From Patescibacteria group bacterium (GTDB lineage: Bacteria > Patescibacteriota > Patescibacteriia > CAIXNZ01): 64,000 nt of DNA. Shown in pieces: positions 527 through 63,766 of this stretch (positions are counted from its first letter, which is position 1; each line of letters starts with the position of its first letter). The notes beneath the pieces were generated by a model that had not been told where the DNA came from, searched no databases, and saw nothing but the letters and a program-made list of their open reading frames with translations. Both the position numbers and the translations under genes were made by a program. The stretch is taken from positions 102,047-166,046 of the forward strand of contig JAQTMG010000002.1 in assembly GCA_028714455.1 (NCBI GenBank), given 5' to 3'.

Positions 527-844
527 ATGGCAACAATACCAATAACAAAGGTGACCAACGAATTTCCGGATTGGGTAAAAGAAGCGCTCATCGGCTTAGA
601 ATTCCCAGTAGTAGAAGTTCCCAATGACCAGCCCTTGCGCGCGCATAATTTTTGGGGACCCCCGATAAATTCACCCCTACTGTCTGAACTATCAGAATCA
701 GTTCATTGCGTGGATGGGGGCGTATTTTTGCAGATTCTGCACGAAAAAAATACGAAAGCCGCTGACTGGCTTGGGACAAAAACCCTTATGGGGTTGGCTC
801 ATTGGGTTGGTATCACCGGGGATAAACTTTTTTTGGTAGATTAA
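527..844 (+). CDS. hypothetical protein (GC-richer, SD-led orphan)
   Basis: Perfect SD AAAAAGGAGG 8 nt upstream of the ATG. Codon GC is higher than in neighbouring genes. A hairpin terminator follows. Confidence 0.5.
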   Translation: MATIPITKVTNEFPDWVKEALIGLEFPVVEVPNDQPLRAHNFWGPPINSPLLSELSESVHCVDGGVFLQILHEKNTKAADWLGTKTLMGLAHWVGITGDKLFLVD

Positions 845-856
845 GCCATTACAAAA

Positions 857-890
857 GGCGAGTTAGAATTCTTTCTACTCGCCTCTTTCT
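857..890 (+). terminator. intrinsic terminator hairpin
   Basis: AGGCGAGT...ACTCGCCT stem followed by a T-rich run. Confidence 0.5.
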
Positions 891-913
891 AAAAGCATTT
901 GTTGATAAATTAT

Positions 914-1831
914 ATGGATTTTAGAAATAACATCCCACTTTCCAAATACACAACCTTTAAAATTGGCGGGGACGCCAAGTATTTTTTTATTGCCAATAAT
1001 TCTGATGAATTAATTAAGGCGATTTCTGACGCGCAAAAAAAGAAAATAAATTACATTGTTTTGGGCGGGGGGAGTAATGTTTTGGTTTCTGATGCTGGCT
1101 TTGACGGTTTGGTTATCATCAATAAAAGTGACGCGATCAAGATTGAAAAAAACATTGTCAAAGCCGGCAGCGGGGTTTTGCTTTTTAATGTTGTCAATAA
1201 AAGCATTGAAAATAATTTGAGCGGACTGGAATGGGCAGCTGGGATTCCGGGCACCATTGGCGGGGCTGTGCGCGGTAACGCTGGCGCGTATAGGGGCCAG
1301 ATGTCAGACAGTATTATTAAAGTTGAAGTTTTAAGAGACGGAAAGATTATTTCTTTGGACAAAAAAGATTGCGGCTATGGTTATCGCCAGTCAATTTTTC
1401 AAAATAATAAAGATTTAATTTTGTCAGTTGAATTGCAGTTGCAAAAAGGGGACAGGGTTGAGAGCGAAAAAAAGATCAAAGAGATTTTGGCTGACAGAAA
1501 AAATAAACAGCCATTGGAATTTCCTTCGGCTGGCAGTGTTTTTAAAAATGTTATGATTGATGACACGATTGATTTAAGCAGGTTTATTAATTTACCCAAA
1601 GAATATTTGGAGTATAAAAAAATACCAGCCGCGTGGCTGATAGATTCATTAGATTTAAGAGGCAAAACAATCGGTGGGGCGCAGATTTCCACCAAACATG
1701 CCAATTTCATTATTAATACTGGCAAAGCCAATGCCAATGATGTAATTCAACTCATTAGTTTGGTTAAAATGAAAGTGCGCAATAAATATGAGATTGAGCT
1801 GCACGAAGAGGTTGAATACGTGGGATTTTAA
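914..1831 (+). CDS. murB: UDP-N-acetylenolpyruvoylglucosamine reductase MurB
   Basis: FAD-binding GGGSNVL motif and MurB-like C-terminus. The ATG at 914 is preferred over the upstream TTG at 899 used by the ORF track. Confidence 0.8.
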   Translation: MDFRNNIPLSKYTTFKIGGDAKYFFIANNSDELIKAISDAQKKKINYIVLGGGSNVLVSDAGFDGLVIINKSDAIKIEKNIVKAGSGVLLFNVVNKSIENNLSGLEWAAGIPGTIGGAVRGNAGAYRGQMSDSIIKVEVLRDGKIISLDKKDCGYGYRQSIFQNNKDLILSVELQLQKGDRVESEKKIKEILADRKNKQPLEFPSAGSVFKNVMIDDTIDLSRFINLPKEYLEYKKIPAAWLIDSLDLRGKTIGGAQISTKHANFIINTGKANANDVIQLISLVKMKVRNKYEIELHEEVEYVGF

Positions 1832-2083
1832 AAAAAATCGGGGATGAACTGGGCAAAAATTCATCCCCGCAGACAAGGAGGAGTGTTTCTCTATTTATTT
1901 TTTATATAGCCCGCTCCAAGAAAAAGGGGGGGCCAAATCGACGTGGTGGTTGGGCCGTTTCACGAGGGGAGCCCGAGGTACGCCGATTTGACCCCGTCCC
2001 AAAGGAGTATGATTAATTTACTACATGTGATATTTTCTGTCAAATGATTGAATTTTTTTATTTTTAGTGATAAATTATTATAT

Positions 2084-2368
2084 ATGAAACTGACAAAACA
2101 AGAAGTCGAAAAAATTGCCAAACTCTCGCGTTTGGAGTTAACAGAGGCAGAAAAAGAATTGTATGCCAATCAGCTGACAAAAGTTTTAGATTATGTGGAT
2201 AAATTAAAGGAAATTAATACTGAAAATGTGCCAATCACGGCGCAGGTGACTGGCTTGGAAAATGTTTATCGAGGGGATGAGATTGACCAATGCGATTTTC
2301 AAAAAGATCTAATAAATCAATCAACAGAACACGAGGATAATTTAATTAAGACAAAGAGTGTATTTTAA
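2084..2368 (+). CDS. gatC: Asp/Glu-tRNA amidotransferase subunit C
   Basis: MKLTKQEVEKIAKLSRLELTEAEKE is the typical GatC N-terminus. The ORF-track start at 2048 is probably too early. Confidence 0.8.
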   Translation: MKLTKQEVEKIAKLSRLELTEAEKELYANQLTKVLDYVDKLKEINTENVPITAQVTGLENVYRGDEIDQCDFQKDLINQSTEHEDNLIKTKSVF

Positions 2369-3921: not shown

Positions 3922-3938
3922 ACGAAAAAGGAGGGAAA

Positions 3939-4106
3939 ATGAAAAGGACGCTTGCTAATAGGGCAGCTGCTCTTCGACATACTGGAGATGAAGAGAAGAG
4001 GCTATCCCAAATGATTGAGGAGAATGAATACGGCAAAAGGAGAGAAAAATACCGGGAAGAAATTCAAGCTCGCAGGAGGATAATGGCGAAGCATGGCGCA
4101 AGGTAA
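3939..4106 (+). CDS. small hypothetical protein (55 aa, basic), SD-led, GC-richer
   Basis: SD AAAAAGGAGGGAAAATG. Not in the ORF track because it is under 60 aa. Confidence 0.35.
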   Translation: MKRTLANRAAALRHTGDEEKRLSQMIEENEYGKRREKYREEIQARRRIMAKHGAR

Positions 4107-4138
4107 AATAATCCTGACGACAAAAAAGGAGGAAAGAA

Positions 4139-4366
4139 ATGAGAGAAAAAGTAGATCGCAAGGCTAAATTAGCACCCCCAGGTTCAGAACGGGAAAAGTT
4201 TTTTGAGCGCCCTGGCCTGATATCTGTTAATCTGGGACCAGAAGGAATCGACGAGAAGACAGCGAAGAAGTTGAATCAACTCATGAAAGACATCGACGCA
4301 GGAAAAGTAAAGGAGGGTATTCCCGAAAAGGTGCTGGAAAGGGATAAAAGACTCAAGATGGTCTAG
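4139..4366 (+). CDS. small hypothetical protein (75 aa), SD-led, GC-richer
   Basis: SD AAAAAAGGAGGAAAGAAATG, followed by a hairpin terminator. Confidence 0.45.
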   Translation: MREKVDRKAKLAPPGSEREKFFERPGLISVNLGPEGIDEKTAKKLNQLMKDIDAGKVKEGIPEKVLERDKRLKMV

Positions 4367-4557: not shown

Positions 4558-4642
4558 ATTAGGTGATTAGTAGAGTGTGATTAGTGACTAATATCCATTC
4601 ACTCTCCACCAAACCCTCCACGCTCCACACTCAACGCTAAAC
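4558..4642. repeat. MITE-like intergenic repeat, copy 1
   Basis: Shares GTGATTAGTGAC(T/C)AATATCCA(T/A)T(C/T)ACTCTCCAC and CTCCAC/CTCAAC-rich tails with the copies at 10198, 21026 and 34659. Confidence 0.6.
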
Positions 4643-4660
4643 CAGCGAAAAAATATATTT

Positions 4661-6866: not shown

Positions 6867-6893
6867 GCCCCGCAGGCACGGGGCTTCATTTTC
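6867..6893 (+). terminator. intrinsic terminator
   Basis: GCCCCG-CAGGCA-CGGGGC followed by a T-run. Confidence 0.6.
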
Positions 6894-7483
6894 TAACAAA
6901 GATCCAATTGGATTGGCAAAAACGCATCAATTATCTTTTTGATTTCGTAATACAGGTATTGGTCAGTTTCCTCGGCAATAGGCAGAATGTAAATTATCGT
7001 CTCCTTTATCTTACGGACCTGCTTCTCTCGGTCGCAAGAGCTTAAAGTCCGCAGATTGTGCAGGCGGTCAACCAGTTTCAGTATCCTGGTTTTATTGTTT
7101 GAGCGGCGGAGCTTTTGGAAATACTTCTGCAACGTTATGCCGTCGCTTAAATCAGTAGCGGATTTTTTAGTCAGAAATTGAACCGCCTTTTTCACCTCCT
7201 TGCCAAAAATGTGCTCAATGTCCCAGAAGTTCAAAATAAAACTGTCTTCGGGTAAATCATGCAGCAGCGCGCTGCAAAGCATTCTGGGGTCGTAGATTTT
7301 CAGCTCGTCAATCAAAATCAGAGCGCAGCTCTTGGGGTGTTCAAAGTACCTTTCGCCGCTTTCACGAGTTTGACCGCGATGGCCGTATTTCGCCAAGACG
7401 TAGGCCAGAATGACCAGATTGAGTTCGCTCGGCAATAACTTATCTTCCAGTTTTTCTATGAATTCTTCTCTGCCAATAGCCAT
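6893..7483 (-). CDS. RelA/SpoT-type HD-domain (p)ppGpp hydrolase (small alarmone hydrolase)
   Basis: HRGQTRESGERYFEHP, LLHDLPEDS and LVDRLHNLRTL match the SpoT HD-domain motifs. No synthetase domain is present. Confidence 0.7.
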   Translation of the reverse strand: MAIGREEFIEKLEDKLLPSELNLVILAYVLAKYGHRGQTRESGERYFEHPKSCALILIDELKIYDPRMLCSALLHDLPEDSFILNFWDIEHIFGKEVKKAVQFLTKKSATDLSDGITLQKYFQKLRRSNNKTRILKLVDRLHNLRTLSSCDREKQVRKIKETIIYILPIAEETDQYLYYEIKKIIDAFLPIQLDLC

Positions 7484-10305: not shown

Positions 10306-10365
10306 AAATGGAAGGTTTGCATGGCGGTCTAGTGCGCACGCCTGCCCCGTACCAATATTTATCAA

Positions 10366-12597: not shown

Positions 12598-12891
12598 TTA
12601 TTCGCCGTAGGAACAGGTGTAGGCCGCAAATCGAGTCGCTTCGAAAACGATTTCTTTTCCGGCCGGGATGATGAAGGTTGAAATGGCTTTACATTCTTGG
12701 CCATTTATCTTGATGCACCCGTAGACAACAACGATTCTTTCTTGCCTTTTGGCGATGCCAAATTCGTATCTTCCGGGAGAAACTACGCCGACCGTGTGGT
12801 CGCCGGATTCGCTCGTAAAACCGAGTGATTGAACCCTTCCCTTGAAATACACATTGTGCTTGATCCCTGGATCGGTTTTCTTCCTCGCCAT
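12598..12891 (-). CDS. ppnP: pyrimidine/purine nucleoside phosphorylase PpnP (DUF1255)-like
   Basis: NVYFKGRVQSLGF...YEFGIAKRQERIVVVYG...YTCSYGE parallels the YaiE/PpnP motifs. SD-led and GC-richer. Confidence 0.6.
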   Translation of the reverse strand: MARKKTDPGIKHNVYFKGRVQSLGFTSESGDHTVGVVSPGRYEFGIAKRQERIVVVYGCIKINGQECKAISTFIIPAGKEIVFEATRFAAYTCSYGE

Positions 12892-15799: not shown

Positions 15800-16210
15800 C
15801 TTTTGACTTTTTGCCTCATGTGTTATAATAATTTTATGGATAGGGGGACATGGCTAACCCAAGCCAGGAGGTGCTCTCATGAAAAAGTTTGTCGGAACCA
15901 TGTCTCGGTTGTCGGGTCTGTAACATGCGGAAGGCAAAGTAACAGGCCTGCGATCAAGGGCGTGTCCGCTAAACCAAGGCGAAAGAGGAGCCTGTTTTTC
16001 TTTCGCCACGCGGACACGCCCACGACAATAATCCCCGTCGGAAAGGGGATAAAAGGATATTAAAAAATCAAAGGAGGAGCTTGCATGGAAAAACTTTTTT
16101 CCAGGCTCGTGGTCGATCTGTAGACTCCTGATACGGAGGAAGCAGATCATCTTAATATTCACGGTCCAAAAAGGACCCCAAACCCCCGAACATAGGTTCG
16201 GGGTTTTTAT
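15800..16210 (+). ncRNA. GC-rich structured region with two tiny SD-led ORFs (candidate ncRNA or leader)
   Basis: 12-bp inverted repeat GGGCGTGTCCGC...GCGGACACGCCC. Hairpin CCCC-GTCGGAAA-GGGG. Terminal CCCCCGAAC-ATAG-GTTCGGGGG followed by T5. Mini-ORFs MKKFVGTMSRLSGL and MEKLFSRLVVDL after AGGAGG. Confidence 0.35.
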
Positions 16211-17078: not shown

Positions 17079-17453
17079 TTACGCAGTGATGATTGATGGT
17101 TCTCCCATCAAGGCCTCACGAGAAAACTGCTTTTTCTCGGCGGAGACCTGCTCCACTTCCCTGACGAATTCGGGGAACTCGGCGAAAACGACAGCCGCCA
17201 CTTCAGGGATCTTATCATAGAAGTAGTTTCTTGCGATGCCGCGCAGAGAACATCTCCTGATACTTTTTTCGTGGTCGGCGATGCATTCCTCTGCCAGGTC
17301 GTAGAATTCTTCGGTGGTGATAGTCTGCCGGGTCAGTCTGCCCGCGATCAGTTTGCACCAACCATAGGCGTCCGGCAGCATGAACGCAATTTTCTGCTTA
17401 TTCATTCTCAACAGCCGTTCCTTTGCCTCTGCCACAAAAGCAACCTTTGCCAT
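17079..17453 (-). CDS. hypothetical protein, SD-led and GC-richer
   Basis: SD AAAGGAGGGG upstream. No recognised motifs. Confidence 0.5.
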   Translation of the reverse strand: MAKVAFVAEAKERLLRMNKQKIAFMLPDAYGWCKLIAGRLTRQTITTEEFYDLAEECIADHEKSIRRCSLRGIARNYFYDKIPEVAAVVFAEFPEFVREVEQVSAEKKQFSREALMGEPSIITA

Positions 17454-17615: not shown

Positions 17616-18104
17616 TTAATGAAGCACTCTTGCTTTATGATCTTGCTTTTTGGAGTTGTGTTTCTCTGCCTTGTCGATTTCTCCGGCTATTTTACTAAGC
17701 AAAGATTCCACGCAGTCCTTGGCCTTAGAAAGAGCGATTTCGTCCATTTTACTCGAATGCGATTCCAGATAAGCATGGAAGGCGCTCAAAATTAGCGAGG
17801 CGGTCAGCCACTGTTCACGAGTGAGAACAATGAGCTGCGGCTGATCATAGTCAAGTTTTTGATCACTGATGGCTGCTTCCAGCTTCTGGAGATAATCTTC
17901 AGGAGTAAGACAGCCCGTTAAAAGAACAAACTGATTAAAAGATTTCTCTTTAAGCTTAATCAGATCAGCTAGATATGAACTCTTGATCTGGGAAAGAAGC
18001 ATATCAATTTCAAAGATGTTCAGATTAATCTTTATGGTCAGGTCTTGCAAAAATGGATTGGCCGTATCGGATTGATCCGTATTCCGCCTACTTTGCTCCG
18101 GCAT
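17616..18104 (-). CDS. hypothetical protein
   Basis: SD GGGAGG upstream. A palindromic terminator follows at 17592-17620. Confidence 0.5.
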   Translation of the reverse strand: MPEQSRRNTDQSDTANPFLQDLTIKINLNIFEIDMLLSQIKSSYLADLIKLKEKSFNQFVLLTGCLTPEDYLQKLEAAISDQKLDYDQPQLIVLTREQWLTASLILSAFHAYLESHSSKMDEIALSKAKDCVESLLSKIAGEIDKAEKHNSKKQDHKARVLH

Positions 18105-24999: not shown

Positions 25000-25461
25000 C
25001 TAGTCGGTCTTGACGAGACAAAGTTCGGGATAGTGACAGATCGAAATCGTGGGATGTTCTTCGCCGATTTTTTCAATGACTTCCTTGGTCTTGACGAGCC
25101 AGCGCGGATCGCAGGGCTTGAGGTCCGGTTCCTCGAAACAGCATCTGGCCTCTTGCTCGTTTAAAAACAGAGCAACGATTTTTGAAGTGCCACCTCGCCA
25201 CCAGCCGGTGTTAACGTATTCAAGCCGCCGCTCGAAAGATGTTTGCGGAGATAGAAGGCCACGGCCCTCATTGATGTAAAATTGCAGATTTGTGGCAATG
25301 GCCAGCATCGTGCCGCCATTTACTCTTTCGCCCTTCTGAACCTTACTCTCGCCCTTCAGCTCGATTTTCACTGCATAGGGATGACCATTTTCATCTTTCG
25401 CGTACACCTCGTAAATTGAGGTTCCGGTCACGGCATAGAATTTTTCAAATATTTCCGGCAT
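25000..25461 (-). CDS. hypothetical protein, SD-led and GC-richer
   Basis: SD AAAAAGGAGGGTCACATG. No recognised motifs. Confidence 0.5.
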   Translation of the reverse strand: MPEIFEKFYAVTGTSIYEVYAKDENGHPYAVKIELKGESKVQKGERVNGGTMLAIATNLQFYINEGRGLLSPQTSFERRLEYVNTGWWRGGTSKIVALFLNEQEARCCFEEPDLKPCDPRWLVKTKEVIEKIGEEHPTISICHYPELCLVKTD

Positions 25462-26029: not shown

Positions 26030-26430
26030 TATAATGTCAAATAAAAAAGCACACCATTTTGAATGTCTGGTGTGCTTGAGGTACCAACACGGAATGTTTC
26101 ATCCTTCCTCTGGGGCAGTTGGCGTGCCCGTGGCTTATGCCACCTGTTGTTTTCCACTTTCGTGGGCGTTCGGCTTGTACATCCGCAGGGGGAACAACAG
26201 CTATTCCCCAAGAAACAACACCATTGTCCTACTAGGTGCAGCTAGTCCCGACTCGTTTACGGGAGTGCCTCCTAAGGATGTTATCTCTCTGCGGATATGT
26301 CCACCATCACCCCGTAGCCTTGCTCTGATTGTTTTTGGCCTGTCAGAGTAGGTTTTGGTGGCCGGTCCATTACGGAAACGAGATTTGTCAGGCCGTTATG
26401 AAATTCAGGTTCTTGTACATTAACACCTCC
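26030..26430 (-). ncRNA. GC-rich structured RNA candidate with a 10-codon SD-led mini-ORF at its 5' end
   Basis: On the minus strand: SD AAAGGAGGTG then ATG (MYKNLNFITA), followed by about 330 nt of GC-rich paired sequence ending in GCACACC...GGTGTGC plus T6. The 105-aa ORF on the plus strand lacks a SD and is unlikely to be coding. Confidence 0.35.
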
Positions 26431-33062: not shown

Positions 33063-33127
33063 TATATTATTTTTCATTAAAATCAAGCAAATTCTAATCA
33101 AATGAAAAAAGCCGCCTGATTCTCAAA

Positions 33128-33160
33128 AGACCCCGAGATAGCATTAAGGGGTCTTTTTTA
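33128..33160 (+). terminator. terminator hairpin, 5' copy of a near-duplicate pair
   Basis: AGACCCCGAGATAGCATTAAGGGGTCT followed by T6. It closely matches the hairpin at 34613-34647. Confidence 0.55.
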
Positions 33161-33242
33161 TTATATATGACTTGATTTTTTTATTTTTATCTGTTAAGGT
33201 TATCCATCGGAACATTGAAAAAATAAAATTAAGGAGGAAAAA

Positions 33243-34604
33243 ATGGAAAAAGCGTTTACGATGGATCAAACGTGGCTACAATGCATGAATTGCGGACACA
33301 GAGCCGACTTGCTGGAGGAAAGAAAATTCAGGTGCCCAGAGTGCGGAGGACTCTATGATATTGAGCACAATTTTAAAAGATTGCCCGTTGATCTTGGGGA
33401 TGATTCGTCGGGAAGAAAATGGAGTTTTAAATCGTTGTCGTCCCGTTATTTTCGCGAGCTTTTTCAGGCCAGAGCTGGGGGCGCTTTCAATTCTTTTAAG
33501 CCGGAATGTGTTTCAGGCATCTGGCGCTACAAGGAATGGATTATGCCGTACTTGCCCGAAGGTCAGATTGTCACTTTGCACGAAGGCAACGTGCCAATCG
33601 TGCCAGCCGGTAAAAATCTTCAGGCCTGGGTCGGCGATGTTGAGCTTTATATCATAATGGAAGGCATGACTCCGACCGGTTCATTCAAGGATTTCGGCGG
33701 CACGGTCATGATGTCCATTGCCAAAGCCGCTGGCATCAAAGCCGTTTGTTGCGCCTCAACCGGCGACACTTCGGCCATGGCCGCGGCTTATGCGGCGGCG
33801 GCCGGCCTTGCCTGTGTGGTCATTTTGCCCCGCGGCAAAGTCACGCCAGTTCAATTGGCTCAACCGCTTGTTCACGGCGCCAGAGTCATCACTTTGCCCG
33901 GCAGCTTTGACGATTGCATGCGCGTCATGCAGGAACTCGTTAGAGAATACGGCATCTACCCGGCCAACAGTCTTAATCCTTCGAGGATCGAGGGCCATCA
34001 GGCCACGGTTTTTCAAATCGCCCAGCGCTTTAACTGGAATTTACCCGATTGGATTTCGGTGCCAGTGGGCAACGGCAGTAATTGTTCATCGGTTGGCAAA
34101 GCTCTGCGTCTTATGAAAAAATTCGGCTTTCAAGCGCCGACCAAAATTTTGGGCTGCCAATCAACGGCCGCCGATCCGCTTTCTTTTCCCTGGTTCGGCG
34201 GAATCACCCTGGAAAAGTGGAAAGCAGATTACTCGCCGATTAAAGTAGGCGAAACTTCTGCCACGGCCGCCAGAATCGGCGACCCTGTCTCTCGCGACAA
34301 AGTCATGAGAGAAATTCTGGCCTCGCATGGCGCCATGCAAACCGCGGCTGAAAGAGAATTGAACGAAGCCGTGGCCATTTGTGGTAAAGACGGCCATAAT
34401 GTCTGCCCGCAAACTGGCATGGCTCTGGCTGGCGTAAGAAATGCCTTGAAGTGCGGCCAAATTAAGGCGGGGGAGCGAGTTATTGTCGTTTCCACCGCAA
34501 CCGGCCTGAAGTTTGGCGAATCTGCCGCCGCCAACCTCAAATCAAACATTATTAATGCCACCGATTGTAAAATAAGCACGGTGGCCAAAATTATGGAACT
34601 GTAA
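33243..34604 (+). CDS. thrC: threonine synthase-family PLP enzyme with an N-terminal zinc ribbon, GC-rich and SD-led
   Basis: TPTGSFKDFGG matches PTLAFKDFGG. STGDTSAMAAA present. Zinc ribbon C-x2-C...C-x2-C. SD AAGGAGGAAAAAATG. Confidence 0.65.
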   Translation: MEKAFTMDQTWLQCMNCGHRADLLEERKFRCPECGGLYDIEHNFKRLPVDLGDDSSGRKWSFKSLSSRYFRELFQARAGGAFNSFKPECVSGIWRYKEWIMPYLPEGQIVTLHEGNVPIVPAGKNLQAWVGDVELYIIMEGMTPTGSFKDFGGTVMMSIAKAAGIKAVCCASTGDTSAMAAAYAAAAGLACVVILPRGKVTPVQLAQPLVHGARVITLPGSFDDCMRVMQELVREYGIYPANSLNPSRIEGHQATVFQIAQRFNWNLPDWISVPVGNGSNCSSVGKALRLMKKFGFQAPTKILGCQSTAADPLSFPWFGGITLEKWKADYSPIKVGETSATAARIGDPVSRDKVMREILASHGAMQTAAERELNEAVAICGKDGHNVCPQTGMALAGVRNALKCGQIKAGERVIVVSTATGLKFGESAAANLKSNIINATDCKISTVAKIMEL

Positions 34605-34647: not shown

Positions 34648-34658
34648 TGGTTTTTGAT

Positions 34659-36581: not shown

Positions 36582-36625
36582 AGCATGCGGCAAATAGTAC
36601 CGATGTCTGGCTTTTTAAAACCGAG

Positions 36626-36650
36626 ACCGTCACGCCAGTGGCGGTTTTTT
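36626..36650 (+). terminator. terminator hairpin, 5' copy of a near-duplicate pair
   Basis: ACCGTCAC-GCCA-GTGGCGGT followed by T6. Matches 37747-37775. Confidence 0.5.
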
Positions 36651-36751
36651 CTTTATTTACTTTAGTCGAGCTTTATGCTACTTTTTTAAGAGGCACCTTA
36701 AAATAAGTCTGAAATTTACCAAATTAAACCAGGAGGCAAAGGAGGTAAGCC

Positions 36752-37732
36752 ATGGATAAAATCGTTTTTTCAAAACCGCTTTCAAGAACCGCGCTGGTTG
36801 ATGCAATTCGGAGGAGACAACCCGTGTCGCAAAGAGCGGCCAAGAAACTGGCGCTTCATCTGGCCAAAAAATTCGGCACGGAGATCAGAAGAGCAGTGGA
36901 AAAAGCGCTTAAAAAACAGGGTGCGTACTCAATCATGGCCATAAGCAAATTAAAACCCCGGATTTCCAATGAGGACGGCTGGAGAGTGAGCTGGCCTTCT
37001 TACCGATGGTATTGCCGGATCGCGGGCGGATTTTACGAAGTAACTACGTCCCTTGCCATTGTCGTTTGCCACGGACAGATGAGTTCGAAACTTTGGGTAA
37101 CCAATCAGCTGAACGCTCTTTGCGTCAGAAAAAGAAAAAGTTTCCGGGTTCAACAGTCGGGATTCGAAGTTATCGCGATAAAAACATTTCTAGAGCGAAT
37201 GAAACCGGTTACGCAAGAAATCTGCGGCTTAATTTGGCCGTATTACAAACGATCCGTCAGAGACGTTCTGCGCCAGAATACCGTTCATTATTGTTGGTTT
37301 GTTTGCGAGGGCGCCGAGACAGACCAATTACTGATAACGCCGCTATTATCTCGAAAAGAATTTCTAGAAACGATTAAACATTGCGACGGCTACAAATTCT
37401 TCATCGAGAACTTCTATCTGCCGTTGTCAAAAGCTCAATCTAATAGATCGCTTGTTGGCGAGGGGATAAAAGAATTAGAGAAAAGGGGTTATCCTTGTAT
37501 CTGGATTTTGCACAGTGATAGTTCTTTTTTCTTCCCCGAGTCGGTTATAAAGGACGCTTATAGTTCAGTCGACAACAAAAAAATGCGTCCCGCCTACCGC
37601 TTGATTGGTTTGGCCTCTAATCTTTACCCCCATCTTGAAGGACCAGCCTATCAGCCGTTTTGGGAAATTTCCTATTACGCGGTAAATCATTTTGCTGATG
37701 CCTTTAAAAATCCGCGACCCAAAAGAAGGTGA
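36752..37732 (+). CDS. hypothetical protein, GC-rich and SD-led
   Basis: SD AGGAGGCAAAGGAGGT. Basic N-terminus. No recognised motifs. Confidence 0.5.
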   Translation: MDKIVFSKPLSRTALVDAIRRRQPVSQRAAKKLALHLAKKFGTEIRRAVEKALKKQGAYSIMAISKLKPRISNEDGWRVSWPSYRWYCRIAGGFYEVTTSLAIVVCHGQMSSKLWVTNQLNALCVRKRKSFRVQQSGFEVIAIKTFLERMKPVTQEICGLIWPYYKRSVRDVLRQNTVHYCWFVCEGAETDQLLITPLLSRKEFLETIKHCDGYKFFIENFYLPLSKAQSNRSLVGEGIKELEKRGYPCIWILHSDSSFFFPESVIKDAYSSVDNKKMRPAYRLIGLASNLYPHLEGPAYQPFWEISYYAVNHFADAFKNPRPKRR

Positions 37733-37746
37733 GCTTTTAGCAACGA

Positions 37747-37775
37747 GGCCGTCACGCCAGTGACGGCCTTTTTTA
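37747..37775 (+). terminator. terminator hairpin, 3' copy
   Basis: GGCCGTCAC-GCCA-GTGACGGCC followed by T6. Confidence 0.6.
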
Positions 37776-37820
37776 TTAATACAAAAACCACCCCGCGACG
37801 CGGAGTGGTTTTTGGTTTAC

Positions 37821-41953: not shown

Positions 41954-42241
41954 TTATAGCAACACGCATCTGGGTCTGCGAGCCAGAACTTCTATGCTCG
42001 TGACCATGGAAACCCTTGCGGTCTTGGACAAGATAAATTGATCTTTTGATCCTTCGATCAACTTTGTGCCGACAAAGATGAATTCGTTCGAATCGGGATT
42101 AAGGCCCATCAGCTTGCCCTTGCAATCAAAAGCTTTGTCCGTGGTTTTAACTTTTACCCACTGGCCAGACAGTCCCAGGATGACTTTTTTCTTTTTCGCG
42201 TCAGACATCTCCTTCGGGAAACCGTAAACCTTCTTCCTCAT
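41954..42241 (-). CDS. hypothetical protein, SD-led
   Basis: SD AAGGAGGGG upstream. Confidence 0.45.
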   Translation of the reverse strand: MRKKVYGFPKEMSDAKKKKVILGLSGQWVKVKTTDKAFDCKGKLMGLNPDSNEFIFVGTKLIEGSKDQFILSKTARVSMVTSIEVLARRPRCVLL

Positions 42242-45098: not shown

Positions 45099-45323
45099 AT
45101 GGAAATCATTTTTGACGTAGCGGTTATTTTGACCGTGATTTATCTTGTTATCGGCACACTCTTTTTTATGGTGAGTTTCTTGTTCACGATCGAGTATACT
45201 TATCGTCTGGCCGCTGGTAAAATTATTCCCAGAACCAGAAGTTGGAAGGTGATTGAAGAATTTTTTTATTGCCTGACTCATGACATTCTTTGGGCCATTC
45301 TCTGGCCGATCACGTGGATTTAA
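45099..45323 (+). CDS. small membrane protein, SD-led
   Basis: SD AAAAAAGGAGGCAATAATG. Two transmembrane helices. Confidence 0.4.
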   Translation: MEIIFDVAVILTVIYLVIGTLFFMVSFLFTIEYTYRLAAGKIIPRTRSWKVIEEFFYCLTHDILWAILWPITWI

Positions 45324-46295: not shown

Positions 46296-46874
46296 TTGAA
46301 TATTCACGAAATATTCGGTGAAATTTCTGGATTTTTTTCGGCTCTGGCATATTTGCCTTACATTTATGCAATTCTGAAGGGCAAGGCCAAGCCCAACCGC
46401 GCTACTTGGATCATTTGGGCAACAATGAATTATATCATCTTTGCCAGCTCTTATTTTGCGGGCGCACGCACAACCCTCTGGCTGCCGATTGCTTATGCAC
46501 TGGGTTCCAGTATAACCGCACTTTTGTCAATAAAATATGGCGAAGGCGGTTGGTCAGGGTTTGATAAGTTTTGCTTAACTGGATCGGCTCTCGGCCTTGT
46601 CCTTTGGGCAATCACCAGACAACCCATAGTCGCCCTGGTCATTACCATCTTCATCGATTTTCTAGGCGCTTTGCCGACCATGAAAAAATCATGGCACGAT
46701 CCCAAGAGCGAGAATAAACTGACCTGGCTCATTTTCTCCATTGGAACATTATTCAGCGTACTTGCCATCAACAAGATTAATTTTGCCATCATGATTCTTC
46801 CCATTTATATGTTTCTCTGCTGCAACACAATCACCTTGCTTGTTGCTTGCCCCAGAAAGAAAAGTAATGTCTAA
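46296..46874 (+). CDS. polytopic membrane protein
   Basis: TTG start after SD GAGGAGG. Five to six transmembrane helices. Confidence 0.45.
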   Translation: MNIHEIFGEISGFFSALAYLPYIYAILKGKAKPNRATWIIWATMNYIIFASSYFAGARTTLWLPIAYALGSSITALLSIKYGEGGWSGFDKFCLTGSALGLVLWAITRQPIVALVITIFIDFLGALPTMKKSWHDPKSENKLTWLIFSIGTLFSVLAINKINFAIMILPIYMFLCCNTITLLVACPRKKSNV

Positions 46875-47026: not shown

Positions 47027-47296
47027 ATGTCGCTAATACTATGTCAAGGAACAAAGCCAACAAATCTGTCAATCAAGACGTTTGGGTGCTGCGACGACAA
47101 ATTTGTTCATTTGGGTAAGTATAAAATTACCATGAACGATTTCGTTGCCGCAGCAATGTATGTGCTGACGAACACTGACCTCGAGGAAAATGATCCGCGG
47201 CTGGAATTCGTCAAGGCAGTACAACGGCTAAAACCCGTAAAAGGTTTTAATCGTGGCTCCAAGAGACTAACCATACCGAAAGGCAAAAAGAAGTAA
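47027..47296 (+). CDS. hypothetical protein, GC-richer and SD-led, flanked by CCCGCC/GGCGGG hairpins
   Basis: SD AAAAAGGAGGGAAAAAATG. Hairpin-plus-T-run terminators at about 46903-46945 and 47300-47340. Confidence 0.5.
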   Translation: MSLILCQGTKPTNLSIKTFGCCDDKFVHLGKYKITMNDFVAAAMYVLTNTDLEENDPRLEFVKAVQRLKPVKGFNRGSKRLTIPKGKKK

Positions 47297-59694: not shown

Positions 59695-60099
59695 TCATTC
59701 CGAGCGTAGCGCGAGGAATCCATAACATCGATTAATATGAAACAATATTGCGTTTACATAATGACTAACAAAAGTGACTCCGTGGATTATACCGGCATAA
59801 CGAATAATTTATTTCGAAGAGTATACGAGCATAAAACCCATTTTAATGAGAAGAGTTTTACTTCAAAATATAATATCAATAAATTAGTTTATTTTGAGGA
59901 ATATAATAATCCCGATCAAGCCATATACAGAGAAAAGCAAATAAAGGGCTTGAGTAGAGAAAAAAAATTTAATTTAATAAAAACTATCAATCCTGATTTT
60001 AATGATTTGGCCAGAGATTGGTATAAAGATAGCCAGGCCGAGCGCAAAGAACAACCGACTCAACCTAAATCATAGATTCCACGCTGCGCTCTGAATGAC
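59694..60099 (+). mobile_element. GIY-YIG nuclease cassette bracketed by about 27-bp imperfect inverted repeats
   Basis: Left repeat GTCATTCCGAGCGTAGCGCGAGGAATCC at 59694-59721. Right repeat GGATTCCACGCTGCGCTCTGAATGAC at 60075-60099. A gene-less copy of the same repeats lies at 2371-2455. Confidence 0.55.
59737..60075 (+). CDS. GIY-YIG family nuclease (COG2827-like)
   Basis: YCVYIMTN...DYTGITNNLFRRVYEHK GIY...YIG motifs. Confidence 0.75.
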   Translation: MKQYCVYIMTNKSDSVDYTGITNNLFRRVYEHKTHFNEKSFTSKYNINKLVYFEEYNNPDQAIYREKQIKGLSREKKFNLIKTINPDFNDLARDWYKDSQAERKEQPTQPKS

Positions 60100-60125
60100 A
60101 GTTGTGGCTCGGCTTTTGCAAAAAT

Positions 60126-61130: not shown

Positions 61131-61409
61131 CTAACGATAACAAAGGATGAGCACGATAATTGATGCGCTGATACAGGCGCTTAAACCAAGGCAGGCCTGG
61201 AGCATGCGAATTCTCTTAAAATAACCTTCCAGCGCCATACACACCTGAACAACCAGGTAGATTGTGAACATGCTGATTGAAAGCCCCTGGACGTTGTGGG
61301 TCTTGATGATTTGATAAAGCTGAGGCAACATTGCCGTAACGTTGATAAAACCAATAACCCAAATAATAACTGACCAATGGATCTTCTCGGCGAATTCATC
61401 GCGTGTCAT
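61131..61409 (-). CDS. SemiSWEET/PQ-loop-like small membrane transporter
   Basis: Three transmembrane helices. MLPQLYQIIKT PQ motif. Start at MTRDEF, about 92 aa. Confidence 0.5.
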   Translation of the reverse strand: MTRDEFAEKIHWSVIIWVIGFINVTAMLPQLYQIIKTHNVQGLSISMFTIYLVVQVCMALEGYFKRIRMLQACLGLSACISASIIVLILCYR

Positions 61410-61501
61410 CTTATCCCTCCTTATTTTATTGTTAGGTACTTTAATTAAATATAATAGCAAAATTTTATATAATTGTCAAATGTTAACAAAATAATAAAAG
61501 C

Positions 61502-62962
61502 ATGTCAGATATAACAAATCTCTTAAAAAATAATAAAATCCAAATATTTTTGGCTATTTTAATCATTGAAATACTTTCTTTAATTAGTTTTAAAATTACC
61601 TGGCTTTCAGGAATATTTTTTGTCTTAATCTGTCTAGGCGTTTTAATTTTAACCTGGCGCAAATTAGAAAATGGCGTCTTGATTGCCTTGGCTGAATTGA
61701 TAATTGGCTCACAAGGATATTTATTTTATCTGATGTTACCCGGATTTAAGGTCTCAATTCGTCTGGGAATTTTTCTGATTGTATTTTTTGTCTGGTTATT
61801 TAAATATTTCAACTTCAGGAATTTCCTCAATTTATTGAGGAAGGATAGGCTAGTTCAAAATTTCATTTTACTTTTAGTTTTTATTGCTTTTGGCGCAATC
61901 AATGGTTTAATTCACAAAAATGGCGCTAGCAATGTTTTTTTTGATCTAAACGGTTATTTATATTTCGGACTCTTTTTTGTCTTTCTGGATGCTTTCAAGG
62001 ATAAAGAATTACCCAATAAATTTATTAATGTTTTACTTGCCGCTTTAACCTATGTTTCTCTGGAAATATTTTTTACTCTTTATATTTTCTCACATTCAAT
62101 TCCATATTTGCCTGATTTATTTTACCACTGGATTCGCGATACCAGGGTAGGGGAGATTACTTATGCCGGCGCTAATTTTTTCCGCGTTTTTTTCCAGTCG
62201 CAAATCTGGACGCTGGAAAGTATATTTATTATTCTATGCATTCTGTTATTAAATAAAAAGTCCAAGTGGCTATATATTCTCTTAATCTTTCTTCAAACTT
62301 CCATTCTAATCAGTTTTGCCCGCAGTTTCTGGCTTGGCGGCGCCGTGGCTATGGCGTTTTTATTCGGTTATTTAATTTACACTCGAATAAAAGAATGGCA
62401 GAAATTATTAAAAAATATTGGCTTAATGATTAGCGCTGCTATTCTAAGTGTTGTCTTGATTTTCGCGATTGCCAATTTTCCATTACCCAAACCCACGGCT
62501 TATTTTACGGCTGATATGTTAGTTGGCAGATTTACTCTGTTTAGCGATGCCGCTGCTTCTAGCCGCTGGCAAGAGCTGCCAGTGATTTTGGAAAAAATAA
62601 AAACCAGCCCCATTTTTGGCGCTGGCTTTGGTTCCACTATTACTTATAAAACCGAGGATCCGCGAATCAAAAATACCGATAATCCAGAAGGCTGGTATAC
62701 CACCTACACTTTTGAATGGGGTTTTTTAGATACGATTACGGAAATTGGTATTATTGGTTTATTGGTTTATTTAGTTTTTATCGGCCAGATCTTTTATCTG
62801 GGGCTTAAGGGCAGGGGAGAGAATTGGCTAAAAATTGGTTTGTTACTCGGTTTGATTGCTTTAGTAATAACTAATATCTCCAGTCCATATTTGAATCATC
62901 CACTGGGTATTGGCTATTTGCTTCTCTGTGCTGGAATATTTGAATCAAGATTGTCCGATTAA
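61502..62962 (+). CDS. O-antigen ligase/polymerase-like (Wzy_C-like) membrane protein
   Basis: About twelve transmembrane helices with a periplasmic loop. Located in the polysaccharide cluster. Confidence 0.5.
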   Translation: MSDITNLLKNNKIQIFLAILIIEILSLISFKITWLSGIFFVLICLGVLILTWRKLENGVLIALAELIIGSQGYLFYLMLPGFKVSIRLGIFLIVFFVWLFKYFNFRNFLNLLRKDRLVQNFILLLVFIAFGAINGLIHKNGASNVFFDLNGYLYFGLFFVFLDAFKDKELPNKFINVLLAALTYVSLEIFFTLYIFSHSIPYLPDLFYHWIRDTRVGEITYAGANFFRVFFQSQIWTLESIFIILCILLLNKKSKWLYILLIFLQTSILISFARSFWLGGAVAMAFLFGYLIYTRIKEWQKLLKNIGLMISAAILSVVLIFAIANFPLPKPTAYFTADMLVGRFTLFSDAAASSRWQELPVILEKIKTSPIFGAGFGSTITYKTEDPRIKNTDNPEGWYTTYTFEWGFLDTITEIGIIGLLVYLVFIGQIFYLGLKGRGENWLKIGLLLGLIALVITNISSPYLNHPLGIGYLLLCAGIFESRLSD

Positions 62963-63099
62963 TTGCCAACAAGTTGGCAAAATCCACAACGATTATCCCA
63001 ATTTATTGGGATTTATTATTTTGTAAATTTGTAAATATGAGCTAACCTGGTTGACAAAGAAATAAAAATTTGCTTAAATTTAGGAAAAGGAGGGAAAAA

Positions 63100-63444
63100 A
63101 TGACCAAACCAGTTGGTAAAGAAGTGCTAAGCCAGTGCGGAATCACGGGAAAGAAATGGAAAAAACTGCCAAATGGCCTGCGCAAACACCGCCGCTGGCA
63201 AAAGGCCCAGGAACGCAAACTGTTTCTCAAGCGCGAGCAGGAATGCAAGCGGCGCGCAGACGAACTGGCCAAGCTGCCGAATTATGAGGACTTTCCGAAA
63301 TCCGTACGACGCGACTACCACGGCGATTGTTGCCCCCACTGCTTCACGTCAAGAAGATTCGCGAGCGCTCAAGTCAAGATACAAACAAAGCAGGGCACAA
63401 AGACCCTCCACAAATGCGAGAGGTGCGGAAAATTATATCGGTAA
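63100..63444 (+). CDS. basic zinc-finger-like hypothetical protein, SD-led and GC-richer
   Basis: SD AAAAGGAGGGAAAAAATG. CCPHC...CERCG. A hairpin terminator follows at 63448-63485. Confidence 0.5.
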   Translation: MTKPVGKEVLSQCGITGKKWKKLPNGLRKHRRWQKAQERKLFLKREQECKRRADELAKLPNYEDFPKSVRRDYHGDCCPHCFTSRRFASAQVKIQTKQGTKTLHKCERCGKLYR

Positions 63445-63496
63445 AGAAAAAACCGCTCCAACAACTGGGGCGGTTTTAATTTTTCAGGACTCATCT

Positions 63497-63766
63497 TTAT
63501 TCGCCGTAATAAATATCACAAGCGAATCCTTTGGGATTTTGCTCGTGCCGGCAGAACGTAAACGCGACCTTGGCTGGCGGCATTTCAGCCGACAAAGATT
63601 CGGGATGGGTAACTGACATTAAAATAAAGAAAGCAATAAGAATATCAATACCCAGGAGCAACACATCTGAAAAAGCGTCCAAATACTTCCGATCCGCAAT
63701 ATCCCCAAATATAGCCTGTACGCCAAACGCAATCATACCGATCAAAAAACCAGCAAAAAATTCCAT
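63497..63766 (-). CDS. small membrane protein, SD-led
   Basis: SD AAAAAAGGAGGGAAAATG on the minus strand. Two to three transmembrane helices. Confidence 0.45.
   Translation of the reverse strand: MEFFAGFLIGMIAFGVQAIFGDIADRKYLDAFSDVLLLGIDILIAFFILMSVTHPESLSAEMPPAKVAFTFCRHEQNPKGFACDIYYGE

Follow-up and report, generated by a model that had tools for sequence, protein, structure and literature searches.

Strong SD sequences mark a class of scattered genes among SD-less core genes in a Patescibacteria genome segment

The genes of the window, a 64,000-nt stretch of contig JAQTMG010000002.1 from a Patescibacteria group bacterium, fall into two populations. About one quarter are led by a strong SD sequence and are richer in GC, and the other three quarters, including all housekeeping genes, lack such a signal. 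Class membership is kept between orthologues, the slots occupied by SD-led genes turn over between relatives, and three of these genes lie between duplicated terminators. The pattern probably reflects two initiation regimes partitioned by gene class, with the SD modules as the plug-and-play fraction of the genes. The existence of two populations, noted in a first-pass annotation of the sequence, is confirmed and is more pronounced than stated there.

Start signals, coding signal and composition

Pairing energies were predicted between the 22 nt upstream of each start and an assumed 16S 3' tail, ACCUCCUUU, as the window contains no 16S gene. Their distribution across the window genes is bimodal, with 18 SD-led genes at about -10.3 to -13.1 kcal/mol and each of the 53 remaining genes at -6.4 kcal/mol or weaker. 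The weak group includes murB, gatA, copA, dnaG, rpoD, infA, rpsM, rpsK, rpsD, rpoA, rplQ, rplM and rpsI, which bears out the claim that the housekeeping genes are SD-less. The SD consensus of the SD-led genes is AAAGGAGG(G/T) at a spacing of 4-9 nt to the start, and AAGGAGG-N4-9-ATG was observed 18 times versus 0.67 +/- 0.88 in shuffles (27-fold enrichment). Calculated gene by gene, SD:anti-SD energies therefore separate two classes, and the motif is not equally common before core genes. All 14 genes for which a stereotyped SD had been listed carry (A)AGGAGG 4-9 nt upstream of ATG. Their membership stands, but the coordinate 14676-15174 is corrected to 14676-15173 and four members had been missed: 6893-7483 (-), 17616-18104 (-), 46296-46874 (+) and 61131-61409 (-). 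The SD had also been reported before mini-ORFs in GC-rich, RNA-like regions, and three such SD-led mini-ORFs were found. The SD-led features are as follows (dG, predicted duplex energy):

527..844 (+): 105 aa, no Pfam family match; SD AAGGAGG at 512-518, dG -12.5; GC 0.456
3939..4106 (+): 55 aa, basic, no family match; SD at 3928-3934, dG -12.3
4139..4366 (+): 75 aa, no family match; SD at 4126-4132, dG -11.8; hairpin terminator downstream
6893..7483 (-): 196 aa, SpoT/RelA-type HD hydrolase domain (PF13328 match; N-terminal part of TIGR00691); dG -12.5; promoter 7547-7519
12598..12891 (-): 97 aa, Ppnp-like nucleoside phosphorylase (PF06865 match); dG -13.0; a single further relative found, at 60% identity
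14676..15173 (-): 165 aa, Cys-rich, no family match; dG -12.3
17079..17453 (-): 124 aa, no family match; GC 0.515; promoter 17545-17517
17616..18104 (-): 162 aa, no family match; GGGAGG with 11-nt spacer, dG -12.9; promoter 18197-18169
25000..25461 (-): 153 aa, SD-led; family with all named members in Patescibacteria
33243..34604 (+): threonine synthase (thrC), 453 aa, N-terminal zinc ribbon (TIGR00260 at 185 bits, above its cut-off); dG -11.1; GC 0.519
36752..37732 (+): 326 aa, no family match; double SD at 36731 and 36740, dG -13.1; only 4 remote, unannotated relatives among 1.84 billion representatives
41954..42241 (-): 95 aa, singleton ORFan with no match except itself among 5.8 billion proteins searched; dG -11.7; promoter 42346-42318
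45099..45323 (+): 74 aa, hydrophobic, no family match; dG -11.8
46296..46874 (+): 192 aa, membrane protein, TTG start; dG -11.9; promoter 46223-46251
47027..47296 (+): 89 aa, no family match; dG -12.3; promoter 46976-47004
61131..61409 (-): 92 aa, PQ-loop/SemiSWEET-like (PF04193 match; NCBIfam SemiSWEET matches weak, under cut-off); promoter 61479-61451
63100..63444 (+): 114 aa, CxxC...CxxC; dG -12.3; GC 0.522; promoter 63051-63080
63497..63766 (-): 89 aa, no family match; dG -12.3; promoter 63831-63803
15879..15923 (+): SD-led mini-ORF (14 codons), located at the 5' end of a structured, GC-rich region (15900-16075, fold z = -7.6; no Rfam match)
16085..16123 (+): SD-led mini-ORF (12 codons), also in this GC-rich region
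26388..26420 (-): SD-led mini-ORF (10 codons); downstream come about 330 nt of GC-rich sequence (no frame with a coding signal, fold z = -2.4, no Rfam match) and a terminator

GC-rich stretches in AT-rich genomes yield long chance ORFs and the source is a metagenome assembly, so that wrongly placed starts, spurious ORFs or chimerism in the assembly could in principle create such a pattern. This reading is effectively refuted. The annotated frame is the best-scoring one in 18/18 SD-led ORFs, the motif lies at a fixed distance from ATG, and at least five SD-led genes show protein-level conservation. In-frame alternative starts with even a weak SD exist in only 4/53 non-SD genes, all of them weak TTG or GTG codons 57-228 nt inside the ORF, and the one in mnmA falls within the nucleotide-binding motif; wrong start calls therefore do not account for the SD-less class. 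Furthermore, the window sequence is present in independent Logan assemblies and the same interleaving of classes recurs in an independent MAG.

The higher codon GC proposed for the SD-led genes is upheld for both GC (0.459 versus 0.392, AUC 0.935, p = 4e-8) and GC3 (0.516 versus 0.411, p = 2e-6). SD-led genes are shorter than non-SD genes, and the separation holds among genes of up to 200 aa (GC AUC 0.944, p = 7e-6) as well as against immediate neighbours (+0.062 GC, Wilcoxon p = 1e-4). Cysteine is 3.3-fold enriched in their proteins. Most were described as function-unknown, and indeed 14/18 have no Pfam or NCBIfam match; family matches were obtained for 4/18 SD-led (threonine synthase, the SpoT-type HD hydrolase, the Ppnp-like protein and the SemiSWEET/PQ-loop protein) versus 42/53 non-SD genes (p = 2.5e-5). 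The SD-led proteins are mostly lineage-restricted or ORFan and faster evolving.

Synonymous codons of the SD-led genes are shifted to G/C endings, with C-ending codons favoured for Phe, Tyr, Ile and Asp and AAG for Lys. Together with the strong SDs and strong -35/-10 promoters, this preference would fit highly expressed genes whose GC3 shift is due to translational codon selection, a reading that we consider unlikely. The ribosomal protein genes, infA, rpoA and bipA have neither an SD nor the codon shift, and many SD-led genes are fast-evolving ORFans. Half of the SD-led genes run against the core-gene orientation (9/18 on the minus strand versus 4/53 non-SD genes, p = 3e-4), an arrangement that highly expressed genes seldom show. 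The suggestion of a dedicated high-translation class is thus unsupported, as these genes are oriented at random relative to the core and the ribosomal protein genes lack their codon shift.

Promoters, leaders and terminators

Most SD-led genes have a TTGACA-N17-TAnnnT-type promoter, an A-rich leader some 15-70 nt long and a hairpin terminator. TTGACA-N16-18-TAnnnT occurs 19 times versus 1.9 expected, with 9 of the 19 occurrences upstream of SD-led genes, and the exact promoter is found in 9/18 modules. As previously claimed, these genes have hairpin terminators of their own: T-runs lie downstream of 16/18 SD-led versus 21/53 non-SD genes, and mean downstream hairpin energies are -18.1 versus -9.0 kcal/mol. 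The modules are autonomous and usually monocistronic, with two exceptions: 3939-4106 lies behind gatA with no recognisable promoter, 4139-4366 coming directly after it, and 63100-63444 and 63497-63766 have a bidirectional terminator in common. Beyond promoter and SD, no shared motif was found upstream of the SD-led genes.

The first 40 nt of non-SD genes are very AT-rich and unstructured, whereas SD-led coding starts show no AT enrichment and fold more strongly (start-region GC 0.41 in SD-led versus 0.30 in non-SD genes; MFE -4.8 versus -1.75 kcal/mol, p = 8e-5). A -10 box, frequently an extended one (TGnTAnAAT), precedes most promoter-proximal non-SD genes, and in about 8 to 14 of them the box ends roughly 5-12 nt upstream of ATG. 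TAnAAT lies 5-9 nt upstream of the start in 8/49 non-SD genes versus a background of 1.6% (p = 1e-6). By promoter geometry, core genes with a -10 box just upstream of ATG are predicted to produce leaderless or near-leaderless mRNAs. Other promoter-proximal non-SD genes have short leaders without an SD, and operon-internal ones start 2-30 nt past the preceding stop codon. A leader alone does not require an SD: several leadered genes (bipA, infA, the marR-like gene, 30360-30746 and 37821-38000) lack one behind good -35/-10 promoters.

Inheritance, slot turnover and insertion scars

The closest relative found, a Candidatus Falkowbacteria MAG of 34% GC, shows the same dichotomy, with 12 genes at duplex energies of -10 or lower, the main mass near 0 and 3 genes between -10 and -6. 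Its SD-led genes are likewise GC-richer (0.385 versus 0.343, p = 0.004). Between the window and this MAG, class is kept in 4/4 SD and 14/14 non-SD orthologue pairs. The SD-led orthologues include those of 17079-17453 (43% identical), 17616-18104 (28%) and thrC (67%, in a different genomic context). Stable inheritance of four SD-led genes, thrC among them, together with SD and GC offset is more in keeping with a functional class of long standing than with a transient mobile pool. Failure to ameliorate is rejected as the source of the GC3 offset because the offset is kept across orthologues.

The family of 25000-25461 comprises 17 homologues, carries an SD in 6/7 genomes and exceeds its locus in GC in all of them; its GC follows that of the host genome from 0.37 to 0.63, and it occupies at least five different genomic contexts. 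These data bear on a recent, unameliorated horizontal gain of the SD-led genes from a higher-GC partner or host that uses SD sequences. Firmicutes and other SD-rich bacteria typically have strong canonical SDs, and the canonical, strong SDs seen here, the raised GC and GC3, the random orientation and the scars at three modules would all agree with such an origin. It is nevertheless quite improbable: the homologues found are patescibacterial or metagenomic proteins without a taxon name, none being assigned to another phylum, a native codon model scores positive in the annotated frame of 17/18 SD-led genes, the offset recurs in the 34% GC relative, where orthologues keep both SD and offset, and the 25000-25461 family tracks its hosts. 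The earlier proposal of acquisition from a higher-GC partner is accordingly without support.

Turnover is evident in the collinear stretch at 39.4-49.6 kb, where the relative has an orthologue for every core gene and for 0/4 SD genes, the matching slots holding other, unrelated SD-led genes. Small SD-led genes also lie directly upstream of a LOG-family gene in the loci L004 and L005, as does 45099-45323 here. Duplicated terminators, seen as 30-46-nt direct repeats that copy the neighbouring terminator, flank 3/18 SD-led genes and 0/53 others in the window:

33127..33162 (+): left terminator copy of the thrC module; z = 16, family D14, 91% identity
34612..34648 (+): right terminator copy of the thrC module, counterpart of 33127-33162
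36613..36656 (+): left terminator copy of 36752-37732; z = 14, family D13
37735..37780 (+): right terminator copy of 36752-37732, counterpart of 36613-36656
46929-46958 and 47326-47352: terminator repeats flanking 47027-47296; z = 6.7

In the Falkowbacteria MAG, the mnmA-proximal slot matching 47027-47296 holds a different SD gene between terminators identical at 36/37 positions. Similar repeats surround 7/379 non-SD versus 0/30 SD genes in more distant CPR loci, and the scar thus marks gene insertion generally and is not specific to SD modules.

A cassette-type mobile gene pool, as suggested in the first-pass annotation, is therefore partly supported: slot turnover, the varied contexts of the 25000-25461 family and the three scarred modules speak for it, whereas no integrase, attC-like site or array was found and orthologue retention in the 34-kb region of the relative is not significantly lower for SD-led than for non-SD genes (4/11 versus 16/30, p = 0.48). 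What is left of a phage, plasmid, toxin-antitoxin or defence island could likewise appear as small orphans with atypical composition, and some SD-led genes do form adjacent pairs (3939/4139 and 63100/63497), yet this origin is very improbable. The genes are scattered singly and form no islands, PHROGs gave no match except one marginal one, PADLOC gave none, scans of viral contigs revealed no relatives, and the window proteins scanned against Pfam contain no integrase, transposase or recombinase domain. The AF2 model of 25000-25461 (pLDDT 89) has no structural analogue in the PDB or among viral proteins.

Initiation regimes and known systems

The separate expression regime proposed earlier is supported: the classes are set apart by their initiation signals, the placement of their promoters, the architecture of their transcripts, the structure of their start regions, codon usage and orientation, and class labels are conserved between orthologues. 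Under two regimes partitioned by gene class, core genes would initiate in a leaderless or 70S-type manner and, inside operons, by re-initiation or structure-free entry, and SD-led genes would depend on SD:anti-SD pairing. A module that brings its own promoter, SD and terminator would be expressed wherever it is inserted. The old core may have been streamlined to SD-independent initiation, and some modules may have been swapped between relatives or moved to other positions in them.

A different regime, in which the SD is more than an aid to expression and serves as the regulatory address of a translational regulon, is conceivable though rather unlikely. A ribosome subpopulation or state with a free anti-SD would read the SD-led genes, and bulk ribosomes would be adapted to mRNAs that are SD-less or leaderless, comparable to the bS21-lacking ribosomes of Bacteroidia. 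Sharp bimodality, SDs as strong as -11 to -13 kcal/mol, conserved class membership and retention of the SD in 6/7 genomes for the 25000-25461 family agree with this, and Flavobacterium provides a precedent (PMC7797042, PMC9976891, PMC13000453); bS21 presence is also variable in Parcubacteria (PMC9297842). However, no ribosomal protein is encoded by the SD-led genes, and the set (thrC, the SpoT-like hydrolase, SemiSWEET and orphans) is heterogeneous, without a common function or, apart from promoter and SD, a common upstream motif.

The partition into two regimes can be placed beside what is described for Parcubacteria, which often lack bS21, have a shortened bS1 and show a detected anti-SD motif in just 48% of 16S genes, an indication that SD usage is in flux within the group (PMC9297842). 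Mixed initiation regimes are already known, and the partition by gene class seen here is a new form of them.

Start signals and gene content

Family searches identified murB, gatCA, copA, bipA, dnaG, rpoD, mnmA, alaS and infA in the window (~40% GC), together with the rpsM-rpsK-rpsD-rpoA-rplQ and rplM-rpsI clusters and a polysaccharide gene cluster. Rfam at the gathering threshold detected three tRNAs only and no rRNA gene across the whole window. For each of the 71 called genes, the 22 nt upstream of the start were scored for predicted pairing with the 16S tail ACCUCCUUU. The resulting dG values are bimodal: 18 genes with a strong Shine-Dalgarno (SD genes) lie between -10.3 and -13.1 kcal/mol, and the rest (non-SD or core genes) at -6.4 kcal/mol or weaker, mostly near 0. 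The consensus consists of an A-rich run, AAAGGAGG(G/T) and a spacer of 4-9 nt. GGAGG is invariant (20/20 sites), an AAA 5' extension is present in 17-19 of the 20, and the distance to the start codon is 4-9 nt in 19/20 (mode 5-6). AAGGAGG-N4-9-ATG occurs 18 times against 0.67 expected. These sites show two features of a canonical SD, a core (GGAGG) complementary to the 16S 3' tail and a constrained spacing of ~4-9 nt; CCUCCUUU at the 16S 3' tail of the source genome would support functional SDs. An anti-SD motif is detected in just 48% of Parcubacteria 16S genes (PMC9297842).

The first-pass annotation had contrasted 14 SD-led, GC-richer genes with SD-less, AT-rich housekeeping genes. All 14 SD loci were recovered, a single end coordinate being wrong by one, and the class gains four genes (6893-7483, 17616-18104, 46296-46874 and 61131-61409). 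Misannotated starts are ruled out as the source of the SD-less core, since the only alternatives are four weak TTG/GTG starts located 57-228 nt inside the ORF. That the SD genes are mostly of unknown function also holds: 14/18 have no Pfam or NCBIfam match, as opposed to 11/53 non-SD genes (p = 2.5e-5). Named products of SD-led genes are:

33243-34604 (+), threonine synthase (thrC), TIGR00260 above cut-off
SpoT-type HD hydrolase, 196 aa
Ppnp-like protein, divergent
PQ-loop/SemiSWEET-like protein, 92 aa

None of the 18 matches a ribosomal protein family, and all-against-all BLAST of the SD proteins revealed no paralogous family within the window. The named homologues of those SD genes that were searched are all patescibacterial. 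The 153-aa product of 25000-25461 (minus strand) belongs to a family of 17 members, the named ones all Patescibacteria, and has a confident AF2 model for which no PDB or viral analogue was found. The search with 41954-42241 returned only the protein itself out of 5.8 billion, that with 36752-37732 found four remote relatives among 1.84 billion representatives, and a protein search with the Ppnp-like gene gave one relative. Ten orphans yielded nothing in PHROGs apart from one marginal match and no match in PADLOC; three single-protein scans of viral contigs, which reach close relatives only, found no relatives.

Three SD-led mini-ORFs lie in two GC-rich regions, for which the codon model gives no coding signal:

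15823-16210 (+), promoter, two SD-led mini-ORFs (15879-15923 and 16085-16123; 14 and 12 codons) around a structured segment, then a terminator
26432-26060 (-), SD-led 10-codon ORF (26388-26420; MYKNLNFITA), then ~330 nt of 50% GC sequence, then a terminator

The structured segment of the first region (15900-16075) has an MFE of -77.9 kcal/mol (z = -7.6); no gene lies downstream on this transcript, and no nucleotide match was found in the fetched relatives. The second region (fold z -2.4), whose ~330 nt have no coding signal and no Rfam match, may represent a new RNA gene, and the overlapping plus-strand ORF 26034-26351 looks spurious. Rfam at E <= 1 returned chance-level matches only for both regions and the copA leader.

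Several further features of the window were recorded. RpoA (53902-54684) comprises 260 aa and its C-terminal domain has no match; a more distant CPR relative (L091) has that domain. AlaRS (49861-51681) is short at 606 aa, and uS11 (52686-53222; 178 aa) bears an N-terminal extension of ~65 aa. About 100 nt upstream of tRNA-Ser(GGA), a 35-nt stretch (10310-10344) shares 77% identity with the 5' part of the tRNA (10407-10441) and may be a degenerate copy of a tRNA. A small ORF that follows a TTGACA promoter at 42912 contains a GAA/GAG-rich tandem repeat with a period of 9-12 nt (43049-43169), which codes for an acidic Glu/Asp run. Two copies of a 33-nt repeat (88% identical) are located between gatC and gatA (2412-2444) and at the 3' end of a GIY-YIG gene (59737-60075), where the copy (60072-60104) reaches the start of the next gene; the repeat may be the remnant of a mobile GIY-YIG element. 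Some 1.2 kb left of the window start, the same genome carries a cyclodipeptide synthase (CDPS) gene and a SET-domain gene (L095, 996-1682).

Architecture and composition of the two classes

The promoter motif TTGACA-N16-18-TAnnnT was observed 19 times against 1.9 expected, nine of the occurrences lying upstream of SD genes, for which we infer leaders of ~15-70 nt. A hairpin with a T-run follows within 80 nt in 16/18 SD genes vs 21/53 others. Half of the SD genes (9/18) but only 4/53 non-SD genes are on the minus strand (p = 3e-4); the core genes are co-oriented on the plus strand, where the cumulative GC skew climbs. The earlier suggestion of a dedicated high-translation class fails on this orientation and on the ribosomal protein genes, which are without the signals. 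Comparison of module junctions revealed no common sequence.

First genes of the non-SD class mostly have a -10 box, often the extended TGnTAnAAT, without a good -35. TAnAAT ends 5-9 nt before the ATG in 8/49 non-SD starts, the background being 1.6% of ATGs (p = 1e-6), and relaxed hexamers give ~14 non-SD starts with a -10 box close to the ATG. This predicted -10-to-ATG geometry matches the definition of leaderless mRNAs used for GeneMarkS-2 group C (bioRxiv 10.1101/193490). Operon-internal non-SD genes start 2-30 nt past the preceding stop codon and have no SD; dG is above -4 for rpsM, rpsK, rpsD, rpoA, rplQ, rplM, rpsI, rpoD and other internal genes, and likewise for the leadered, SD-less bipA and infA. 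The first 40 nt of non-SD genes have 30% GC and a fold of -1.75 kcal/mol, as opposed to 41% and -4.8 kcal/mol in SD genes (p = 8e-5). It is an established idea that SD-independent initiation needs an unstructured start, and the AT-rich, weakly folded non-SD starts fit it.

The claimed difference in base composition was borne out by GC (0.459 in SD vs 0.392 in non-SD genes) and GC3 (0.516 vs 0.411), with AUC values of 0.935 (p = 4e-8) and 0.876, respectively. The GC separation is also found among genes of <=200 aa, and SD genes exceed their immediate neighbours by +0.062 (p = 1e-4). SD genes favour G/C-ending synonymous codons (share in SD vs non-SD genes: Lys 0.41 vs 0.23, Tyr 0.47 vs 0.25, Phe 0.38 vs 0.22, Pro 0.71 vs 0.51), and their proteins are 3.3-fold enriched in cysteine, with Arg, Trp, His and Pro up and Asn and Ile down. 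Under a codon model trained on non-SD genes only, the annotated frame is the best-scoring one in 18/18 SD ORFs and its score is positive in 17; the ORFs are therefore real genes of broadly native codon usage. GC-biased recombination in often exchanged genes and selection tied to leadered mRNAs are candidate causes of the persistent GC3 offset. Composition and SD are imperfectly coupled, since a 59-aa zinc-ribbon protein (37821-38000, minus strand; CxxC-x17-CxxC), Cys-rich and by eye G+C-rich, comes with a TTGACA promoter (38123-38095) and a terminator of its own yet lacks an SD.

The best-supported reading is that two initiation regimes, split by gene class, coexist in one genome. One would serve a streamlined, co-oriented, SD-independent core, probably leaderless to judge from promoter geometry. 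The other would serve autonomous SD-led modules, which may account for a large part of the genes that are lineage-specific, evolve faster and are partly mobile.

Two further features were noted. An 87-nt intergenic repeat is present at 4559-4645 and 34669-34755 (80% identity between the copies); it is rich in C, with CCUCC-like runs. One copy immediately precedes copA and the other an ABC transporter ATPase gene, and each is found just 3' of an SD-module terminator; one copy would fall within a 5' leader, the other upstream of a promoter, and the repeat has no Rfam match. CTGAA...GATGACAG-like motifs recur upstream of genes in two loci from relatives (L013 and L006).

Inheritance, turnover and insertion scars

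The closest relative in the genome collection is a Candidatus Falkowbacteria MAG (JAFGMD010000021.1), syntenic with the window and compared over 34 kb of reconstructed sequence (34% GC), in which core orthologues are 51-93% identical. The same SD/non-SD dichotomy is found there, with the GC offset in the same direction (0.385 vs 0.343, p = 0.004). Class is inherited, in that orthologues of 17079-17453, 17616-18104, 25000-25461 and thrC are SD-led in this relative too and 14/14 orthologues of non-SD genes lack an SD. Divergence is greater for SD orthologues (28-67% identity) than for the others (51-93%; p = 0.03). In the collinear stretch at 39.4-49.6 kb, every core gene but 0/4 SD genes has an orthologue, and the matching slots of the relative, one following the LssY-family gene and two preceding the LOG-family gene and mnmA, respectively, carry unrelated SD-led genes. 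Two more relatives likewise have an SD-led small gene adjoining mnmA or the LOG-family gene. When all of the comparable region is counted, the classes do not differ significantly in orthologue retention (4/11 SD vs 16/30 non-SD), and lower retention was therefore dropped as proof of accessory status. Logan contigs extended the window ends by only ~4 kb, with 0 new SD genes.

The family of 25000-25461 retains promoter, SD and terminator in 6/7 genomes, and its GC exceeds that of the locus in all seven while following host GC (0.37-0.63). Its members occupy at least five contexts, among them after rpoD, between rpsJ and rplC in the S10 operon, and between alaS and infA. An origin from a higher-GC partner organism, as once proposed for the SD genes, fails on the taxonomy of homologues, on the offset kept in orthologues and on its scaling with host GC. 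Two loci of relatives are of separate interest. In a 48% GC CPR genome (metagenome contig Ga0255338_1000422; L089, 9431-12739), four genes split the S10 operon between rpsJ and rplC, one of them the family member and two on the opposite strand; the operon is broken a second time between rplB and rpsS. In the Falkowbacteria MAG, a ~6-kb block (L085, 3647-9800) with no counterpart at the matching place in the window codes for a recombinase zinc-ribbon protein, an Imm_superinfect protein, a DUF5659 protein and a GIY-YIG protein. It is placed beyond the rpoD-adjacent SD gene, away from rpoD and towards the thrC region, and looks like an integrated element.

Three SD modules are bracketed by direct repeats of 30-46 nt that are copies of a neighbouring terminator:

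33127-33162 and 34612-34648, repeats flanking thrC, z = 16
36613-36656 and 37735-37780, repeats flanking 36752-37732, z = 14
46929-46958 and 47326-47352, repeats flanking 47027-47296, z = 6.7

Flanking repeats with z >2 occur at these three and at 0/53 non-SD genes (Fisher p = 0.014). In the relative, an unrelated 465-aa SD gene occupies the same mnmA-proximal slot (L004, ~18150-19740), and its terminators are 36/37 identical. Because thrC is 67% identical to the relative's orthologue, which is located elsewhere, while its flanking repeats are ~91% identical, a comparison of these sequences suggests that thrC relocated or was re-acquired well after the split of the two lineages. In distant CPR loci, repeats of 27-53 nt flank 7/379 non-SD genes and 0/30 SD genes, and duplicated terminators as a rule specific to SD modules were therefore rejected. 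Repeat-flanked non-SD genes include:

L006, 4375-4986
L087, 2699-3088
L087, 11295-12038
L089, 2892-5903

Since these distant repeats flank non-SD rather than SD genes, the scar appears to mark gene insertion generally in these genomes. No integrase was found near the repeat-flanked genes. The duplicated-terminator scars point to a CPR insertion process of which no description was found in the literature searched.

A bolder reading, to which we assign a low probability, would be a lineage-wide pool of self-expressing SD modules that move within and between Patescibacteria and integrate after terminators or at gene junctions by an unrecognised route duplicating 27-53 nt of target, the SD acting as a portable translation licence where the core abandoned SD-dependent initiation. 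Classical transposase target duplications are far shorter than 27-53 nt. Taken together, the window and an independent relative suggest an SD-independent, probably leaderless core alongside a distinct, partly mobile class of mostly uncharacterised small proteins that keeps a perfect SD. If genome-wide, this would provide a sequence rule dividing the stable core from flexible lineage-specific genes in CPR metagenome bins, better calling of start codons and small genes in CPR genomes, and a natural system to ask whether SD-dependent and SD-independent initiation regulates in reduced ribosomes.

Relation to known systems

Genomes mixing leaderless and SD initiation, as well as SD-poor genomes with few strong SDs, are already known. 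A sharp SD/leaderless split in Patescibacteria/CPR, with the SD marking a distinct module-like class, was not described in the literature searched. The Patescibacteria are a large, barely cultivated share of bacterial diversity with reduced ribosomes, and the reported lack of anti-SD motifs and of bS21 raises the question of how they start translation.

Integron cassettes resemble the SD modules in being small, mostly function-unknown ORFs of atypical composition, bounded by hairpin repeats and turning over between relatives. However, neither intI nor attI was found, nor any recombinase domain among the scanned window proteins, which cover all but a few small ORFs. The bounding hairpins are GC-stem and T-run terminators that vary between modules and do not look like attC sites, and the modules have their own -35/-10 promoters and are scattered singly in both orientations, unlike promoterless tandem cassettes in an array. 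Compositionally atypical genes or islets that are read as horizontal transfers share the deviant GC and codon usage (GC AUC 0.935 here), random orientation, occasional insertion scars and few family matches. The deviation of the SD genes, in contrast, is upward in GC, conserved in orthologues and scaled to host GC, with no detectable donor lineage. Absence from relatives gives a mixed picture, as 4/11 have SD-led orthologues and for 7/11 none was found.

Firmicutes combine a strong SD with 5' SD stabilisers, and nearly all of their genes use such an SD. The AAAGGAGG consensus, the extended pairing, the spacing of 5-9 nt and the short A-rich leaders are alike, whereas the SD is found here in one compositional class only. 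The bS1 of this organism is probably reduced (PMC9297842).

The SD-blind Bacteroidia share a mostly SD-less genome, A-rich upstream regions and a minority of genes with very strong conserved SDs (PMC7797042, PMC9976891, PMC13000453). In Flavobacterium johnsoniae, one gene, rpsU, is described as having a strong SD that serves autoregulation (PMC13000453). The SD is not limited to rpsU or a few regulatory genes in the present case: 18 diverse genes in 64 kb (~25%) are strongly SD-led, functionally mixed and none a ribosomal protein gene. It is possible that the SD genes form a regulon translated by ribosomes in a state that leaves the anti-SD free. Bacteroidia offer a precedent (PMC7797042, PMC9976891, PMC13000453), and Parcubacteria vary in both bS21 and the anti-SD motif (PMC9297842). 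The Bacteroidia-type anti-SD is sequestered by bS21, bS18 and bS6, whose genes lie outside the window.

For two initiation regimes split by gene class, a further comparison is GeneMarkS-2 group C, described in the available text of bioRxiv 10.1101/193490 as mixing leaderless and SD initiation in Actinobacteria and Deinococcus-Thermus; the taxa named there do not include Patescibacteria. As in that description, the predicted promoters place a Pribnow box ~6-10 nt before the start of operon-first genes, and other genes have an SD at equal distance. In group C as so described, however, an SD is general among operon-internal and leadered genes, whereas internal genes of the window, including the ribosomal protein cluster, are SD-less, and only a class of distinct composition, that of the autonomous and mostly orphan modules, has the SD.
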